From contig CABZMF010000001.1 in assembly GCA_902526795.1 (NCBI GenBank), forward strand, positions 199,458 to 263,457: a stretch of DNA of 64,000 nucleotides, read 5' to 3'. Origin of the DNA: an uncultured Fidelibacterota bacterium (lineage in GTDB: Bacteria; Fidelibacterota; Marinisomatia; Marinisomatales; Marinisomataceae). The translations under genes and the position numbers were made by a program. Below the pieces are notes generated by a model that was not told the origin of the DNA, ran no database searches, and saw only the letters and a list, made by a program, of their open reading frames with translations. Within the stretch, counting starts at the first letter, position 1. Each line of letters starts with the position of its first letter. Shown one piece after another: positions 4,879 to 10,135 of the stretch.

Positions 4879-5760
4879 ATGCTTTATTTAATTTTTTCAT
4901 CCGTATTTCTTATTGGGTTAGTTTATTTTTTAAGAAATCAAATCATATTAAATATTTATAAGCTTCCTTTGATTAGGAAGTCTTGGCAACTTCCATATAT
5001 GGATGCAGGTTCAGTTCAACTTAAGAATGATAATAAGCCTGTAGTTGTGTGTTGTGGCGATAGTATCACGCACGGCCATATTGGTTATGATTGGGTTGGT
5101 TCATTAAGAAAAAAAGATAATTCTAAGGTTTATATAAATGCAGGAATAAATGCTGACCTTACTTGGAATTTAAATCAAAGAATTGACGATATTTTAAAAC
5201 ATAATCCCGACTACATAACAATTCTTATTGGAACAAATGATGTTATTGGGAGTCAGCCAGTTAAACTAATTCAAAATTATTACATTCAAACCAAAGGATT
5301 ACCTCAAATACCTACCAAAGATTGGTTTGAGGAACAGATTGAAATTTTCATCAAAACAATTAAAGAAAAAACTTCAGCAAAAATTGCCATCTCAACTTTG
5401 CCTTGGCTTGGAGAAAGAAAGGATGCTCCTATAATTAATGTGATAAGAAAGTTTAATGTTATCATTACGAATCTTGCTTTAAAATATGATTTAATAATTT
5501 TAGATTTTTTTAAAACACTTGAGAAAAATATTGAGAAAAGTAATAACACAACCGATTTTGATATAAGTATACCTTATACAACATCTGAAATTAGACGGCT
5601 TAGAGGTTTAAGAGCTGTGATACTTTATTATGTATTTGGTTGGAGTTGGAACAGAATAGGTGAGAAATATAAACTTCAATTTCTTTGTGATCACATCCAT
5701 TTAAACGAAAGAGGTGGGCACTTAATGGAAGAGAAAGTTAAAAAATTTTTAACGACTTGA
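4879..5760 (+). CDS. SGNH/GDSL hydrolase with N-terminal membrane anchor
   Basis: Blocks GDSIT, G(INAD), GTND and DHIH. Confidence 0.88.
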   Translation: MLYLIFSSVFLIGLVYFLRNQIILNIYKLPLIRKSWQLPYMDAGSVQLKNDNKPVVVCCGDSITHGHIGYDWVGSLRKKDNSKVYINAGINADLTWNLNQRIDDILKHNPDYITILIGTNDVIGSQPVKLIQNYYIQTKGLPQIPTKDWFEEQIEIFIKTIKEKTSAKIAISTLPWLGERKDAPIINVIRKFNVIITNLALKYDLIILDFFKTLEKNIEKSNNTTDFDISIPYTTSEIRRLRGLRAVILYYVFGWSWNRIGEKYKLQFLCDHIHLNERGGHLMEEKVKKFLTT

Positions 5761-5876
5761 GTTATGAATCAAGTTAGTCATCATTCATGCTGCTTATAAT
5801 TTGCCACGCAAAAATTATGAATAGTATCTCCATTTACTAATTTAATTAATATATTAAAAAGTTTCTATTAACTGAT

Positions 5877-6191
5877 TTACGATCTGACTGAAACTATCTT
5901 AAGACCAGAACTTGTACAACTTAAAGTATAATCGATTGGGTTCATACCGCCGCAGAAAACAGTCACATAATAATTATTTCCACTTTGCCTTACACTTCCA
6001 GTAGAAAAACGACATCCGACTGCGCTTGCTCCTAAACCATAATTACTTCTAGCATGATTAAGTGCTTTCATATCAGCAGTGCTTTTGTAACACTTTGAAG
6101 AGCTACTTTTTGATTTACTTGGCGATATTAATTGAAATAAAATAATGATACTTAACAACACAACTAAAACTTTTAAAACTTTTTTTTCCAT
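5877..6191 (-). CDS. Small exported hypothetical protein with 4 Cys
   Basis: Basic N-terminus plus hydrophobic helix, Ser-rich linker, 4 Cys; 1 nt downstream of the neighbouring ORF. Confidence 0.6.
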   Translation of the reverse strand: MEKKVLKVLVVLLSIIILFQLISPSKSKSSSSKCYKSTADMKALNHARSNYGLGASAVGCRFSTGSVRQSGNNYYVTVFCGGMNPIDYTLSCTSSGLKIVSVRS

Positions 6192-6192
6192 T

Positions 6193-6534
6193 CTATTCTA
6201 TTGCTTCAATAATTTTTTTTGTAAGAATACCTAATGCTTCATTATTTTCTTCAATTCTTTTTTGAGTTTCTTTAAGTTTTTTTAAGCTAGTAGCAACTTC
6301 ATCAAAATCTCCTATTCCGTCATTTACATAAAGATAAACTTCAAAATATAAAGCCGCAAATAAGGATAGATCATTACTCAGATTTTTTGCAGATAAAACA
6401 ATTTCTTGTTGTTGTAAAAGAATAGTTTCTTGAAGGGTAAAATATTGATTAGCTCTATTAATAACTGAAAAGAGCGACAACGAAAGTGTTATCATCAATA
6501 TTGATATTGAAATGTTTAATATTTTCTTATCCAT
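6193..6534 (-). CDS. Hypothetical membrane-anchored helical protein
   Basis: N-terminal TM segment followed by a coiled-coil-like region. Confidence 0.55.
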   Translation of the reverse strand: MDKKILNISISILMITLSLSLFSVINRANQYFTLQETILLQQQEIVLSAKNLSNDLSLFAALYFEVYLYVNDGIGDFDEVATSLKKLKETQKRIEENNEALGILTKKIIEAIE

Positions 6535-6581
6535 AAATGAATTTAGTTCTTCAATTTAAAGTAAACTAGCAATTTGATGAT

Positions 6582-6631
6582 GTACCCCGGACAGGATTTG
6601 AACCTGTGACCTACGGATTAGAAAATCGTTG
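6582..6631 (-). repeat. att-like direct repeat of the tRNA-Arg 3' half
   Basis: 6582-6624 is identical to 8097-8139 (43 bp); extends to 50 bp with 2 mismatches, ending in the anticodon stem. Confidence 0.95.
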
Positions 6632-6663
6632 ACTTCTCGAGGAGAAAATTAAAGAAATATTGT

Positions 6664-7944
6664 TTAGTTTAAATGTGAATTATCTGATCTATTACAACTT
6701 TGACATTTACATCTACCATTTGAAAGAATTGTTTGTCCTCCATGAGAATATTTATCAACATGATCGGCATCAACTTCTTTAAATTCAATTTTTCTATCAC
6801 ATTCTGTACATTTTTCATTTGAATTTTTCCAAAGTACATATCTTTCCTCATCTGAGAATCTTCTATTTAAATCTTTAATTGCAACGTCATCATTCCATAA
6901 TAAAAAATATTTTTCAAGACAATTATACCTTAACTCCATATTGCCAGGATCATTAGTGCTATGTTGACTCATGTTTTGATATGCGCTTAGTTCAATATTT
7001 TGTTCATTTTCATCTAACCTGTAATTATATATAAGTTCTTTATTGAATCGAGTAAAAAATTCCTGGAGTTTTCCATATATTTTTTCATGAGCATATTTAG
7101 ATAAAATATTTCCAATACCAATATAATATAATTGTGTTATTGTTAGTTTTTTTAACAAGGGATCTTCTTTTTGAAACACTTTTGTCATCAAATCTAAATT
7201 CTTTGTTACATTTGAAATTAATTTCTTTGAATTCTCATCACTCATTGTTTTATTGTTTCTTACCATATTATCTAAAAATTGTTTTTTAATTTCACAAAAT
7301 CTTGATAATCCTCCATTTATTGTATTTTCTTCAATTCTCAAAAGTTTTGCTGAAACTTCATAGTGTGAATATTTTTTATTTTTGAAGGTTACATATTCTT
7401 TAAAATATTTGTGTTCAGCAACATCACGAATTAATGAGCACATATCTCCGCCAAATGCATTTCTTTTCTCAGCCGAAGAAAGAGTTTCTCCATTATTTAA
7501 TCTTTGAAATAATTCTTCAATATCTTCTTCTTCAGCATTTTTAACTTCTGTAATACTTAAACTAATATCTCTAAATCTTTCTTTCCAACTATCTGAAAAG
7601 TCTGAATATCTATCACCACCTTTGGGTGCATTTTTTTCATCATGAACTGATTCAGAAAACTTAAAAGAATTGCCTAATGCAAATTCATCATTCAAAAATT
7701 CCCATATAGTAGATAGTCTTTGTTTTCCATCGATAACAGCATATATATATTCATCTTTTTCATCATACAAATCATGAAGATAAATTTTGGGTGTATCAAA
7801 ATAATTTAAAAGTGAATCTATCAAGAGCTGTTTTTTATCATTCGACCAAGCACCACTTTCTCTTTGATATGGTGGATTTGTGTTGATTCTATTTTTCTCT
7901 GTTCTAAAAAACCCTACACTTTTTGTTGTTGCTGTGCACTTCAT
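6664..7944 (-). CDS. DUF262 (GmrSD-like) domain protein with C-terminal HNH nuclease; putative modification-dependent restriction/defence protein
   Basis: PPYQR..W, VIDGKQRL.T, IEELFQRLNNG..L....KRNA (DUF262); C-terminal CTEC...DADHV...GG....NGRCKCQSCN (zinc HNH). Confidence 0.8.
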   Translation of the reverse strand: MKCTATTKSVGFFRTEKNRINTNPPYQRESGAWSNDKKQLLIDSLLNYFDTPKIYLHDLYDEKDEYIYAVIDGKQRLSTIWEFLNDEFALGNSFKFSESVHDEKNAPKGGDRYSDFSDSWKERFRDISLSITEVKNAEEEDIEELFQRLNNGETLSSAEKRNAFGGDMCSLIRDVAEHKYFKEYVTFKNKKYSHYEVSAKLLRIEENTINGGLSRFCEIKKQFLDNMVRNNKTMSDENSKKLISNVTKNLDLMTKVFQKEDPLLKKLTITQLYYIGIGNILSKYAHEKIYGKLQEFFTRFNKELIYNYRLDENEQNIELSAYQNMSQHSTNDPGNMELRYNCLEKYFLLWNDDVAIKDLNRRFSDEERYVLWKNSNEKCTECDRKIEFKEVDADHVDKYSHGGQTILSNGRCKCQSCNRSDNSHLN

Positions 7945-8029
7945 ATATCAATATAAAGTAATTCTTTTACAAAAAAAATACTAATAACCACAACGGATTT
8001 TCTAACTGTTGATCGAAGATCAGTGGATT

Positions 8030-8051
8030 TGTGTAGTTGGTGTGTAGTTGG
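8030..8051. repeat. Tandem 11-bp direct repeat TGTGTAGTTGG x2, possible integrase arm-binding sites
   Basis: Exact tandem copy about 45 bp from the tRNA-Arg 3' end, inside the island. Confidence 0.6.
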
Positions 8052-8097
8052 TAAAATAAAGAGTATTTTAAAAGAGTAAAAAGGGGATTTGTCGTCG

Positions 8098-8171
8098 TAC
8101 CCCGGACAGGATTTGAACCTGTGACCTACGGATTAGAAATCCGTTGCTCTATCCAGCTGAGCTACCGGGGC
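8098..8171 (-). tRNA. tRNA-Arg(TCT)
   Basis: Reverse complement GCCCCGGTAGCTCAGCTGGATAGAGCAACGGATTTCTAATCCGTAGGTCACAGGTTCAAATCCTGTCCGGGGTA; anticodon loop TTTCTAA. Confidence 0.96.
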
Positions 8172-8252
8172 ATGAGCCAAATTTAACTAATTAATAAAAA
8201 CTTTAAAGCTTTTTTGTAAAATTCTTCCGAGGGGCTTCCGACGAGAAATTTC

Positions 8253-8281
8253 TTGCAAAAAATCTTGTTTAGTATTAGAAT
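8253..8281 (+). promoter_or_regulatory. Sigma70-type promoter of the 75-aa gene
   Basis: TTGCAA (8253-8258), 17-nt spacer, TAGAAT (8276-8281); AAGGAG SD at 8312-8317. Confidence 0.65.
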
Positions 8282-8323
8282 ATTGAAATTAGCTTATTCA
8301 CTAAACTTTTTAAGGAGAATAAA

Positions 8324-8551
8324 ATGGCTGAAAAAGTAAAAACATGTGGTGTTAGTAAAGAAAGTGGCTATCTATATTATTTAGGTAAAGATGGTAATGT
8401 ATGGCGCTCAGGTATGTCAAGAGGCGGATCTGGAGGCGGTAATGCAGAGAAAGTTGCTGACGCTGGAGTAACGCGTGAAAGTGGTTACCTATATTTCATC
8501 GATAAAGACGGTGATGTATCTCGCGCACCTATGGCTAGAGGTAGAGGTTAA
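8324..8551 (+). CDS. 75-aa protein made of two 33-aa repeats joined by a Gly linker; candidate DNA-binding/nucleoid protein
   Basis: Residues 2-34 vs 41-73 are 20/33 identical (AEKV..xGVx[KR]ESGYLY[YF]xxKDGxVxRxxMxRG); own promoter, SD and terminator. Confidence 0.85.
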   Translation: MAEKVKTCGVSKESGYLYYLGKDGNVWRSGMSRGGSGGGNAEKVADAGVTRESGYLYFIDKDGDVSRAPMARGRG

Positions 8552-8580
8552 TAAACTTTTATCTTATTTGGTTTTTATTG

Positions 8581-8608
8581 AAAAAGGAGCATTTCGATGC
8601 TCCTTTTT
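8581..8608. terminator. Bidirectional intrinsic terminator
   Basis: AAAAAGGAGCAT-TTCG-ATGCTCCTTTTT perfect hairpin with A and T tracts, between convergent genes. Confidence 0.9.
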
Positions 8609-9228
8609 TATTTAACTATGGAATTTTTATGACTGCCAACAATCCCGCTTGAAACTATCATTCTAAAACCTTCTTCAACATCCACATCTGCAGGAGTAGT
8701 ATCCTCCTTAGTAATAATAACAAAATATCCAGATGTAGGATTAGGAGTTGTTGGTACAAAAAGATGGTAGAATTCTTCATTAGTCTCATTTACAGATTCA
8801 CCTGTTACAAATCCTAATGTCCACATTCCTTTTCTGGGATACTCTATATAAACAACTTTTTGAAATGAATCAGTCTGAGATCCGGACAGTGTTTCAATTA
8901 TTTGTTTTGTTGTTCCATATATTGAGTCTATCAAAGGAATTTTTTTGAAAATGCTTTCAAACCAATCTACGACCCTTTTACCGATCACATTTCGGGCTAA
9001 GGCTCCAAAAATTATCAATGCAAAAAATACAATGAATAAACCAACCATGGAACTGAGTAAACCAAATCCTGGAAAAGTTACATCAACAAATTTTTCAAGC
9101 GGTTCTGCAACGGTACCTCCAATCCAAATCGTTACTTCTAAAGTAACTTGTATTACATATACTGTTAGAGCTAGAGGAACTATAGTTGCAATACCTGCTA
9201 TTAGATTCGATTTAATTTTTTCAAACAT
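8608..9228 (-). CDS. DUF502 family membrane protein
   Basis: Two N-terminal TMs; IPLIDSIYGTTKQI, IEYPRKG.W.LGFVT, FVPTTPNPTSGY. Confidence 0.9.
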   Translation of the reverse strand: MFEKIKSNLIAGIATIVPLALTVYVIQVTLEVTIWIGGTVAEPLEKFVDVTFPGFGLLSSMVGLFIVFFALIIFGALARNVIGKRVVDWFESIFKKIPLIDSIYGTTKQIIETLSGSQTDSFQKVVYIEYPRKGMWTLGFVTGESVNETNEEFYHLFVPTTPNPTSGYFVIITKEDTTPADVDVEEGFRMIVSSGIVGSHKNSIVK

Positions 9229-9253
9229 AATTTAATTTATTAAAAAATAGATT

Positions 9254-10135
9254 CTATTTCCTATATATAAGTATAGAACTTCCAAGAATGAACAAGGTTC
9301 CTATAATTTCTTTTGTAGAAAGTACTTCCCCAAGAAAAACCCATCCGAGAAATATAGCAACTATAGGAGGAAAAATAGCTACATAAGTTACTTGTGTTAC
9401 ATTAAGGTATTGATACAGCCAGAAGTAAATTCCCCAAGAAATAAATCCTCCAAATACTATTAAATATAAAGTTGATAGAATGAGCTCATTATTCCATACT
9501 ATGACAGATATATCTTCTTGGAAAAGGAATGATGTTGATAGCATAACAAATCCTGTTAATACTTGACAAACAGCATTCATTTGGTATGGGCCAACTTCAT
9601 CATTATGTTTTTTGTAAAGAACACTCGGATATGCTGCTATAATTATTACTGCAATAAGTACAAGTATAGCTGAAAAGGATTGTGACGCTAAATCAATTTC
9701 TTGATTTGAGCTCATAATAGTAACACCTAAAAGACCAGTAAAGAGCGCTGCAATTTTATTTTTATTAAGTCTTTCAGCTGGATCATCATTAATCATAAAA
9801 TGAGCCATTAAACTTGTAAAAAGAGGAAATAAGCCCCATAAAATAGATGAAATACTTGAAAAAATATATTGTGTAGCCCAATATGTCATTCCATATGATA
9901 AGCTAAAGTTTAAAAGACCAAATGATAAATATAATTTTATTGCTTGAGAAGAAGTTGGTATAGATAATTTTTTATACAATATATATATGTAAAAAATAAT
10001 TCCTGAGAAAAGAAATCTCAACCCTACTCCATAAAATGGCGGAACTCCTGCATTTAAAGAAATTTTGATGAAATACCAAGTTGAACCCCAAATCAAGCAT
10101 AAAGCTATGAATGGAAATAAGATTTTATTATTCAT
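9254..10135 (-). CDS. EamA/DMT family transporter
   Basis: LIWGSTW...K, 10 TMs, PIVAIFLGWVFLGE. Confidence 0.88.
   Translation of the reverse strand: MNNKILFPFIALCLIWGSTWYFIKISLNAGVPPFYGVGLRFLFSGIIFYIYILYKKLSIPTSSQAIKLYLSFGLLNFSLSYGMTYWATQYIFSSISSILWGLFPLFTSLMAHFMINDDPAERLNKNKIAALFTGLLGVTIMSSNQEIDLASQSFSAILVLIAVIIIAAYPSVLYKKHNDEVGPYQMNAVCQVLTGFVMLSTSFLFQEDISVIVWNNELILSTLYLIVFGGFISWGIYFWLYQYLNVTQVTYVAIFPPIVAIFLGWVFLGEVLSTKEIIGTLFILGSSILIYRK

Follow-up and report, generated by a model that had tools for sequence, protein, structure and literature searches.

How streamlined, uncultured ocean bacteria exchange genes without plasmids or conjugation is a long-standing question, and the tycheposons of cyanobacteria are one answer to it. 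SAR406 is among the most abundant of the uncultured marine phyla. We analyze a 64,000-nucleotide stretch of DNA from this phylum, referred to throughout as the window (assembly GCA_902526795.1, contig CABZMF010000001.1, positions 199,458 to 263,457); the host belongs to the Marinimicrobia (SAR406, Candidatus Neomarinimicrobiota). Our subject is the interval 6582-8146, in which a single gene lies between a tRNA-Arg(TCT) gene and a second copy of the 3' part of that tRNA. We consider it probable that this interval is one unit of a cassette array, built by additions one after another at the single tRNA-Arg(TCT) gene, and that the unit is non-autonomous and mobilized in trans.

Units that are flanked by attachment (att) sites and have no recombinase of their own are familiar from other bacteria. 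Cis-mobilizable elements (CIMEs) and the pseudo-staphylococcal cassette chromosome (pseudo-SCC) elements at rlmH in staphylococci are of this kind; they share a site with autonomous relatives and accumulate in tandem. CIMEs are thought to depend on the recombinase of a relative, and are decayed integrative and conjugative elements of several kilobases. The term CIME is also used in ICEberg 2.0 (PMC6323972). Like a CIME, the window unit is att-flanked and recombinase-less, and an autonomous element occupies the same attachment site (L180, a Marinimicrobia contig). Unlike CIMEs, the units described here are 0.4-2.3 kb long, mostly single-gene, built on a standard frame, and carry at least 67 different cargos. 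Nor do they look like deletion products of an autonomous element, the origin by which CIMEs are recognized: the tRNA-proximal (P') module differs from the P' arm of the element except in its repeats. No sign of conjugation functions was seen in the units.

Two further precedents concern tRNA genes. Additive flexible islands beside tRNA genes have been described in Alteromonas (PMC4119200) and in Methylophilaceae, where a tRNA-Lys island holds recurring 20-bp repeats of the tRNA end (PMC10872708). As far as the available portions of these two reports go, such islands resemble the present array in their tRNA target, in copies of the tRNA 3' end between added cassettes, and in strain-variable content at a fixed position; the same portions describe no conserved cis module, arm-repeat variants, pseudo-core, or matching autonomous elements. 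The cassettes studied here also differ in residing in Marinimicrobia, at tRNA-Arg(TCT), with a crossover in the anticodon loop and a 43-bp repeat. The tycheposons of Prochlorococcus were found via integrase-carrying elements of ~10-20 kb, many of them with replication modules (10.1101/2020.12.28.424599). They share with our locus a marine setting, tRNA targeting driven by tyrosine recombinases, the building of islands in which remnants occur, tandem integrations parted by partial tRNAs, and cargo for defense and niche adaptation (10.1101/2020.12.28.424599); in contrast, the window unit is devoid of their hallmark genes, that is, a deep-branching tyrosine or large serine recombinase and a replication module. 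Neither Marinimicrobia nor SAR406 is mentioned in the tycheposon preprint (10.1101/2020.12.28.424599). The autonomous Marinimicrobia elements described below, which encode Int, resolvase, ParB/DruA, and Xis, may be analogous to tycheposons.

The tRNA-Arg(TCT) site and its alternative contents

The intact tRNA-Arg(TCT) gene occupies 8097-8171 on the minus strand (ARAGORN; Rfam tRNA, 73.9 bits). Its final 43 bp, from the anticodon loop TTTCTAA to the tRNA 3' end (8097-8139, minus strand), form the first core copy, on the attL side. The second core copy, on the attR side, is the displaced original 3' part of the tRNA (6582-6624, minus strand). The two are identical. Imperfect similarity runs on to 6631, and the 50-bp extension (6582-6631 against 8097-8146) contains exactly 2 mismatches; 1465 bp separate the 50-bp repeats and 1472 bp the 43-bp cores. 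Identity breaks straight after the anticodon loop (TTAGAAA on the plus strand), in the 5' strand of the anticodon stem, and the crossover point is placed in the loop, at 8133-8139. In the integration model, the 5' part of the tRNA gene is host DNA and its 3' part is cassette-borne.

The repeat stands out from its surroundings. A 40-mer taken from it occurs twice in the window, and none of 100 shuffles gave two matches; the locus thus shows the tRNA with displaced 3' fragment that characterizes Islander-type islands, and the unit encloses no tyrosine integrase such as those islands contain. The 64-kb window holds neither a third copy of the repeat nor partial copies of its other three tRNAs. 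The second core copy is also recovered by Rfam as a sub-threshold partial tRNA match (6583-6643), and the GC content of the cassette is 27%, against 30-32% in the flanks. An earlier note on this DNA, made from its letters, had described a 43-bp perfect repeat (50 bp with 2 mismatches) that breaks in the 5' anticodon stem, with one gene, 1465 bp, and no integrase between the copies. Sequence comparison reproduces that description exactly, the gene is a 426-aa open reading frame (ORF), and searches of the window for an integrase were negative. The attL/attR geometry with anticodon-loop crossover proposed in the same note holds here and in ~70 related units, all of which start from TTTCTAA.

Relatives place the interval in context. 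We retrieved 16 species-level Marinimicrobia genomes with the flanking DUF502 protein, and these share a backbone of SecD/F, EamA, DUF502, a 75-aa protein, tRNA-Arg, a variable stretch, a GDSL lipase, four genes, and tRNA-Asn. One genome (L006) has no insert, and its GDSL lipase gene follows directly after the tRNA; 10 of the 16 carry one or two complete units ended by a partial tRNA copy, and in 2 further genomes the sequence breaks off within a unit. A scan of metagenomes, with a pattern made of the tRNA end and the first bases after it, returned 94 additional stretches. In genomes and metagenome stretches alike, every partial tRNA copy begins at the same anticodon-loop base. The cargo varies among the genomes, except for three recurrent small ORFs: L015 carries a C5 methylase with an R.HinP1I-like endonuclease, L011 and L012 carry Big_9/cadherin lipoproteins, L010 carries two tandem lipoprotein cassettes, and the others hold small ORFs and proteins without known function.

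The cassette of the window is itself variably present. A metagenome contig (L001) has the flanking genes of the window, with an identical DUF502 protein, and a 60-aa ORF in place of the nuclease gene. A contig of run X10 represents the empty site for this cassette: in it, position 6581 continues straight into 8097, with 43 bases shared. In run X1, the flanks reach a k-mer depth of ~171 and the 1479-bp cassette contig a depth of 16.7 (~10%), and a second module variant is present at 25.3; the frequency of the window cassette in this population is low. Marine metagenomes from many studies (2014-2025) contain the cassette, and it is found again as a separate contig (L002) and, between an intact tRNA and a partial copy, in the 13.8-kb contig L107. 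Because these two independent contigs carry it, the repeat is not an assembly artifact. L107 comes from a different lineage: its cargo and module are 95.9% and 92% identical to those of the window, against 79-84% for DUF502, EamA, and SecF and 76% for the left backbone, and its downstream neighbor differs. Judged by these identities, the comparison shows transfer of the cassette between diverged lineages.

Older members of the array may persist in degraded form. Between the cassette and the GDSL lipase gene lie two small ORFs of 113 aa and 104 aa (5877-6534, minus strand), both of which recur in relatives. In L008 and L018, homologs of the 113-aa ORF are enclosed by the tRNA and a partial tRNA copy, in L008 together with a standard distal end. 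The two ORFs are probably older, decayed cassettes of the same array whose module was lost in the lineage of the window. In L152 (its terminal cassette, with two DNA methyltransferases as cargo) and in L093, L128, L132, and L145, module and cargo stand next to the backbone without a distal partial tRNA; the oldest array members apparently lose the distal repeat.

On the other side of the tRNA, the 75-aa protein (8324-8551, plus strand) consists of two copies of a ~30-aa motif, GV(S/T)(K/R)ESGYLY..KDG.V.R..M.RG. All 16 genomes have it, as do the window and L001, and no Pfam family matches it significantly. Its gene shows 94% DNA identity between lineages whose neighboring genes are ~80% identical. 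A 19-bp inverted repeat with a 4-nt loop (8574-8615), probably a bidirectional terminator, lies between the convergent 75-aa and DUF502 genes; sub-threshold Rfam matches (L20 leader, STnc40) fall on it.

Frame and cargo of the cassettes

Parsing of all loci yielded 69 distinct core-to-core units: 67 mini-cassettes of 373-2285 bp, two elements of 6551 and 6553 bp, and none between. The longest array, in a 4-kb contig (L108), has four tRNA-fragment copies around three complete cassettes. The mini-cassettes follow a standard frame. In 64 of 67, the longest ORF runs in the direction of the tRNA, and 55 have no second ORF; the median start of the ORF in the 64 is +154 after the core (interquartile range 150-163), and the median distance from its stop to the next core is 46 nt. 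A conserved module, which comes in type A (43 cassettes) and type B (18), takes up the first ~150 nt, and the last ~28 nt are conserved as well, reading TTAATTTTCTCCTCGAGAAGTCAACGAT in type A; between successive ORFs, conserved elements of 190-220 bp result. Compared with modules from cassettes whose cargo is unrelated, that of the window cassette shows 84-96% identity. Cassettes are found at first and at internal positions of arrays, with differing neighbors. In summary, a unit consists of a ~150-bp tRNA-proximal module, one cargo gene oriented like the tRNA, and a ~28-bp distal end.

The module begins with the tRNA trailer GACGACAAATCCCCTTTTT (8078-8096, minus strand), a terminator-like GGGG..CCCC stem followed by a T run, which is kept after the tRNA or partial copy in nearly all cassettes and would act as a terminator. 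Next comes a tandem direct repeat (8031-8051, minus strand), two copies of CCAACTACAC with an 11-bp period. This 10-mer is confined to 8031-8051 within positions 5000-10000 of the window, in a search allowing at most 1 mismatch. Across the family, an exact tandem repeat of an 11-12-bp unit is present at +44 to +57 in 59 of 67 cassettes, and ~17 sequence variants of the pair occur. We read the tandem repeats as putative arm-type integrase sites because of their position, their duplication, and their matching to repeats of the autonomous elements; each pair may label its cassette for one integrase variant.

A third component of the module is the pseudo-core, an inverted copy (CAACGGATTTTCTAA...) of the 5' strand and loop of the anticodon stem (7991-8011, plus strand; ~105 bp from the tRNA end). 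Every type A module has a reverse-strand match at +180, and type B modules retain both anticodon-stem half-sites with an altered spacer. The pseudo-core is a candidate accessory core-type integrase site. A short inverted repeat of 9 pairs, G-T included, lies beside and overlapping it (8006-8026, on neither strand in particular); its sequence is highly conserved in type A modules, and neither covariation nor folding supports it. Besides the tRNA, Rfam finds nothing in the module. Directly upstream of the start codon of the cargo gene lies an AT-rich, promoter-like leader (7945-7990, minus strand). Of 64 cassettes, 47 have the motif TAnnTTT within 45 nt upstream of the ORF and 10 have the fuller Bacteroidetes-type TAnnTTTG, which occurs in 3.7% of control windows. 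A scan for sigma-70 promoters gave no more matches than shuffled sequence did. The motif statistics are consistent with a promoter in the leader.

The distal cassette end, or P arm (6625-6652, minus strand), is the TTAATTTTCTCCTCGAGAAGTCAACGAT sequence itself; it stands directly before the crossover, contains a small palindrome, and is conserved in type A cassettes with unrelated cargo. Variants of the palindrome include TTCTCG-T-CGAGAA and TTATCG-T-CGATAA. The distal end is similar to the final 25 bp of the P arm in integrase-bearing elements. Some contigs join module and end without cargo: in run X6, one contig (7971-8123 joined to 6595-6650) skips 6651-7970 and runs directly from module to distal end, and in run X1, another (7990-8140) joins the module to a further core, going back 151. 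These would be units of ~150-190 bp that consist of attachment sequence alone.

The single long ORF between the repeats (6664-7944, minus strand) encodes 426 aa, with an N-terminal DUF262 domain (GmrSD_N, a ParB-like NTPase fold) and an HNH nuclease domain. Pfam supports both (GmrSD_N 6e-19, HNH 1.4e-5; PF03235 scores 69.4 bits against a cut-off of 33.2), and PADLOC reports NsnA (1e-32) and PD-T4-2_A (2e-19). No solved structure is detectably similar to the protein in sequence. Its AlphaFold model has a predicted local distance difference test (pLDDT) score of 88.6, and the fold matches BrxU (7p9k) best; ParB CTPase domains, SspE, and an HNH nickase come next. DUF262-HNH proteins of ~420 aa, the family to which the cargo belongs, are widespread; its nearest non-self homolog is 52% identical. 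In the family, D72, G73, Q75, and R76 (the DGxQR motif) are invariant, as are C379, C382, D394, H395, N409, C414, and C417; this latter group fits an HNH zinc-finger nuclease. As in the type IV enzymes GmrSD and BrxU, an N-terminal DUF262 ParB-like NTPase domain with DGxQR is found in a single polypeptide. Unlike theirs, the C-terminal nuclease is a classical zinc-ribbon HNH (PF01844) instead of a DUF1524 His-Me finger. The cargo is most likely a single-protein, NTP-dependent nuclease that acts in defense, and is predicted to be a restriction-like enzyme resembling type IV.

The wider pool is more varied. We surveyed 78 cargo ORFs with Pfam and PADLOC and found surface Ig/cadherin proteins (9), DUF4379 (4), HNH (3), DnaJ (3), two type II restriction-modification pairs, N6 methylases, Schlafen/AlbA_2, GH16, and Kelch proteins, and many ORFs without a match; no integrase was found among them. 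Cargo lipoproteins of L011, L012, L093, L132, L145, and L146 begin with nearly the same signal peptide (MRKILFIIPFFLWTCGGG) though they are unrelated. In this subclass of surface-protein cassettes, the frame seems to extend into the first ~15 codons.

Integrase-bearing elements at the same site

A phmmer search with Escherichia coli XerC/XerD against all ORFs of all loci gave one match, a 411-aa protein in locus L115. Its gene adjoins the partial tRNA core directly upstream and is transcribed away from the core. The corresponding integrase family comprises 19 clusters with Phage_integrase and SAM-like domains; its members are 411-417 aa long, with ~85 aa ahead of the SAM-like domain. In L180, a 643-kb contig, a 6.55-kb element bounded by the intact tRNA-Arg and a partial copy sits in the same backbone. 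Its genes, which run against the direction of the tRNA, are those for Int, a resolvase, and a ParB_N/DruA protein, six small ORFs, and an Xis-like HTH_17 gene. Other contigs (L182, L183, L185, and L190-195) contain a P arm-core-P' arm junction, the attP arrangement, without the 5' half of the tRNA, which represents a circular or tandem form. In L184, a type A mini-cassette comes immediately after the element.

As a group, the elements of L180 (9899-16537) and L181-L195 encode Int, a small serine resolvase, ParB_N/DruA, in some cases a ~375-aa protein, small ORFs, and HTH_17; they are often assembled as circular permutations. Similar Int-resolvase-HTH_17 elements occur in L196 and L197, with P0013 and P0014, more distant relatives of the integrase (~40% identity). 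No tRNA-Arg core lies near these two, so they probably target other sites. A phage origin of attP was also considered and rejected: a scan of IMG/VR with the 3' half of the tRNA returned only L083, with a full tRNA in another context, a scan with module motifs returned nothing, and no viral carrier was found. L083 (5023-6120; UViG_3300035204_001150) is a GC-richer, viral-labeled contig whose full tRNA-Arg(TCT) is 2 bases off that of the window; a weakly Xer-like 314-aa ORF lies on the 5' side of the tRNA, and the architecture is unlike that of the cassettes.

The elements carry arm repeats, 8-10-mers on both sides of the core: CTACAACA in L180 and L190, CGACTATA in L186, TACAAGAA in L187 and L193, and CAACTACAAA in L115. 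Each arm, P and P', has 3-4 copies, in direct and inverted orientation. All CTACAACA copies of L180 and all GACTATA copies of L186 fall in the arms, as do 5 of 7 TACAAGAA copies in L187, a locus with a duplicated element gene set. Repeat variants of mini-cassettes match those of elements: ACCTACAACAC of L139 corresponds to L180, ACCGACTATAT to L186, and ACCTACAAGAA to L187 and L193, and the window pair CCAACTACAC has CAACTACA in common with L115. Integrases that share a repeat are more similar in their N-terminal regions (P0008 and P0009 are 78% identical there). With 8-10-mer repeats on both sides of the core, an additional N-terminal integrase domain, and an HTH_17 Xis-like partner, the elements have the sequence features of a lambda-type, arm-binding integrase system and its attP. 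Unlike lambda attP, mini-cassettes keep only two P'-side repeats and the inverted pseudo-core.

These observations suggest a mechanism. In the circular form of a cassette, the distal end, the 43-bp tRNA 3' part, and the module would together constitute attP. A lambda-type tyrosine integrase with an arm-binding N-terminal domain would recombine this attP with the tRNA gene inside TTTCTAA; the reaction would rebuild the tRNA and displace the old 3' part downstream, along with any older cassettes. Elements of at least 6.5 kb (Int, resolvase, ParB/DruA, Xis-like HTH_17), which share the site and the type of arm repeat, would supply the integrase in trans. Mobilization of mini-cassettes by the integrases of these elements is what we infer; the empty-site contig, the 10% relative depth, the transfer between lineages, and the retained arm repeats all bear on it.

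The earlier note had left two options, a reduced island or a cassette mobilized in trans. The cassette option fits better, because the standard frame is unrelated to the interior of the elements, arm repeats are kept, and there are no integrase remnants; the reduced island was rejected on that same want of remnants, on the bimodal sizes (0.4-2.3 versus 6.55 kb), and on the one standard frame around unrelated cargo. Its phrase "swappable defence slot" survives in part: the slot is swappable, and it is not restricted to defense, given the many surface lipoproteins and proteins without known function. Alternative cargo, an empty-site allele, and an integrase that targets tRNA-Arg(TCT), which that note had anticipated, have all turned up, the integrase in relatives, within the large elements. 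An assembly artifact, which it had named as a possible refutation, was not borne out.

Several results weigh against mobilization in trans. No tyrosine recombinase or remnant of one was detected in the 64-kb window with two motif regular expressions, phmmer with E. coli XerC/XerD, and tblastn with the 19 family integrases. Nor was the L115 integrase present at 85% identity or above in the four runs that hold the cassette (X1, X2, X4, and X6), whose contigs cover the core and module of L115 only. No element with the exact CCAACTACAC variant was found; the variant occurs only in other mini-cassettes, and the nearest element repeat is CAACTACAAA of L115. Mini-cassettes also have none of the arm-type repeats that autonomous elements carry in the P arm, so a lambda-like reaction might be impaired in one direction. 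The circle (attP) junction of a mini-cassette was not observed in the Logan k-mer contigs examined for it, which break at the 43-bp repeat. Because the collection pattern requires a module, the metagenome set cannot give frequencies. Finally, precise loss and exchange of cargo could also come from homologous recombination between the 43-bp repeats or between conserved modules.

Competing explanations and meaning for SAR406

Homologous recombination is the basis of the strongest competitor. The cassette could be an immobile relic, either of past site-specific entry or of deletion from a larger island, at a site that now varies by RecA-type recombination with incoming DNA, for which tRNA/module and core/backbone would provide the homology, and by deletion between the 43-bp repeats. 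The missing integrase, in the window and as a near-identical co-occurring gene, agrees with this, and homologous deletion would account equally well for the empty-site joint, which lies inside the 43-bp repeat. The identity between the window and L107 is 90-96% for the tRNA, the intergenic region, and the 75-aa gene as well; thus, a larger segment may have moved by homologous exchange, and the conserved 190-220-bp inter-ORF elements would make good homology arms. We nevertheless regard the relic as unlikely. The cassettes are not deletion derivatives of a known element: they have no homology to element interiors and no integrase remnants, and the genes run in opposite directions. Cassettes take first and internal array positions beside different neighbors, and the autonomous elements look active, with attP junction contigs in existence. 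Of the 67 cassettes, 59 keep an exact tandem pair at a fixed position, along with a strongly conserved pseudo-core, despite differing in cargo and in repeat sequence. Such retention in unrelated cassettes argues for ongoing selection on cis-acting sites; a relic leaves unexplained why units of 0.4-2 kb should maintain either feature.

Integrons provide another comparison. Integron cassettes likewise form arrays of mostly single-ORF, co-oriented, recombinase-less units, drawn from a large pool that includes defense genes, with the recombinase encoded elsewhere. In an integron-like reading, recombination would act on the inter-ORF element in folded, single-stranded form, its junction paired with the inverted pseudo-core in the manner of an attC hairpin. 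The conserved ~200-bp element that parts the cassettes is suggestive, as is the pseudo-core TTAGAAAATCCGTTG, which is the reverse complement of the junction CAACG(G)ATTTTCTAA and complementary to it in type A. However, RNAalifold on 22 type A modules gave -0.58 kcal/mol and only 4 pairs, with no compensatory change, and the three bases adjacent to the crossover vary (GAT, ATA, TAA, CAA) with no matching change in the pseudo-core; on these two grounds, the attC-like folded strand was rejected as the main model. With neither structure nor covariation in the pseudo-core region, a site for a sequence-specific protein is likelier than a folded one. The complement is not kept in type B (e.g., L106), the crossover falls in a tRNA gene, which is double-stranded and has the inverted half-sites in its stem, and the associated integrases are arm-binding and phage-type, with Xis-like partners, rather than IntI. 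No IntI and attI stand beside the array, whose neighbors are SecDF-EamA-DUF502-75aa on one side and the GDSL lipase on the other. Unlike integron cassettes, those described here have no IntI, attC hairpin, or common Pc; each brings its own promoter-like leader, the tRNA gene is the recombination site, the arm repeats are lambda-style, and the integrase is on a separate mobile element. An integron-like mechanism is very improbable.

Least credible of all, to the point of being negligible, is that a low-abundance contig was chimerically joined into a high-abundance backbone across the 43-bp repeat: in run X1 the cassette contig and its flanks are indeed separate and end at the repeats, but population heterogeneity leads one to expect such a depth gap, L107 holds cassette, intact tRNA, and partial copy within a single contig, and the same architecture recurs in dozens of other contigs and in isolate, single-amplified, or metagenome-assembled genomes.

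A non-autonomous cassette, mobilized in trans, is therefore the reading we carry forward. A broader proposal can be built on it, for which we see somewhat less than even chances: SAR406 may operate a second, integron-independent cassette economy, with an open pool of standardized, mostly single-gene mini-cassettes. Each would bear its own promoter, a short tandem repeat as the address label for one variant of the diversified arm-binding integrases, and an inverted pseudo-core, and the cassettes would be captured, stacked, and exchanged at the anticodon loop of tRNA-Arg(TCT) by integrases that small autonomous elements supply in trans. If so, the ~17 repeat variants would correspond to integrase-cassette specificity groups that compete for one chromosomal slot. 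No description of such a cassette system was found in the literature searched. What appears to be new is the miniature standard frame, the arm-repeat label matched to a diversified integrase family, the pseudo-core, and the host phylum.

The sequences that act in cis are all short and conserved: the core measures 43 bp, the distal end 28 bp, and the module, which includes a variable 11-bp repeat, 150 bp. Mobilization in trans and the specificity between integrase and repeat are thus directly testable. The cassette ends also serve as metagenomic handles, through polymerase chain reaction or read mining, for an inventory of the flexible gene pool and its turnover. The locus shows that a tRNA repeat without an integrase can be functional architecture, not debris. 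For SAR406, it would represent a compact point of gene exchange: one slot, a large pool of tiny cassettes that bring restriction systems, nucleases, and variable surface lipoproteins, and a small family of helper elements.

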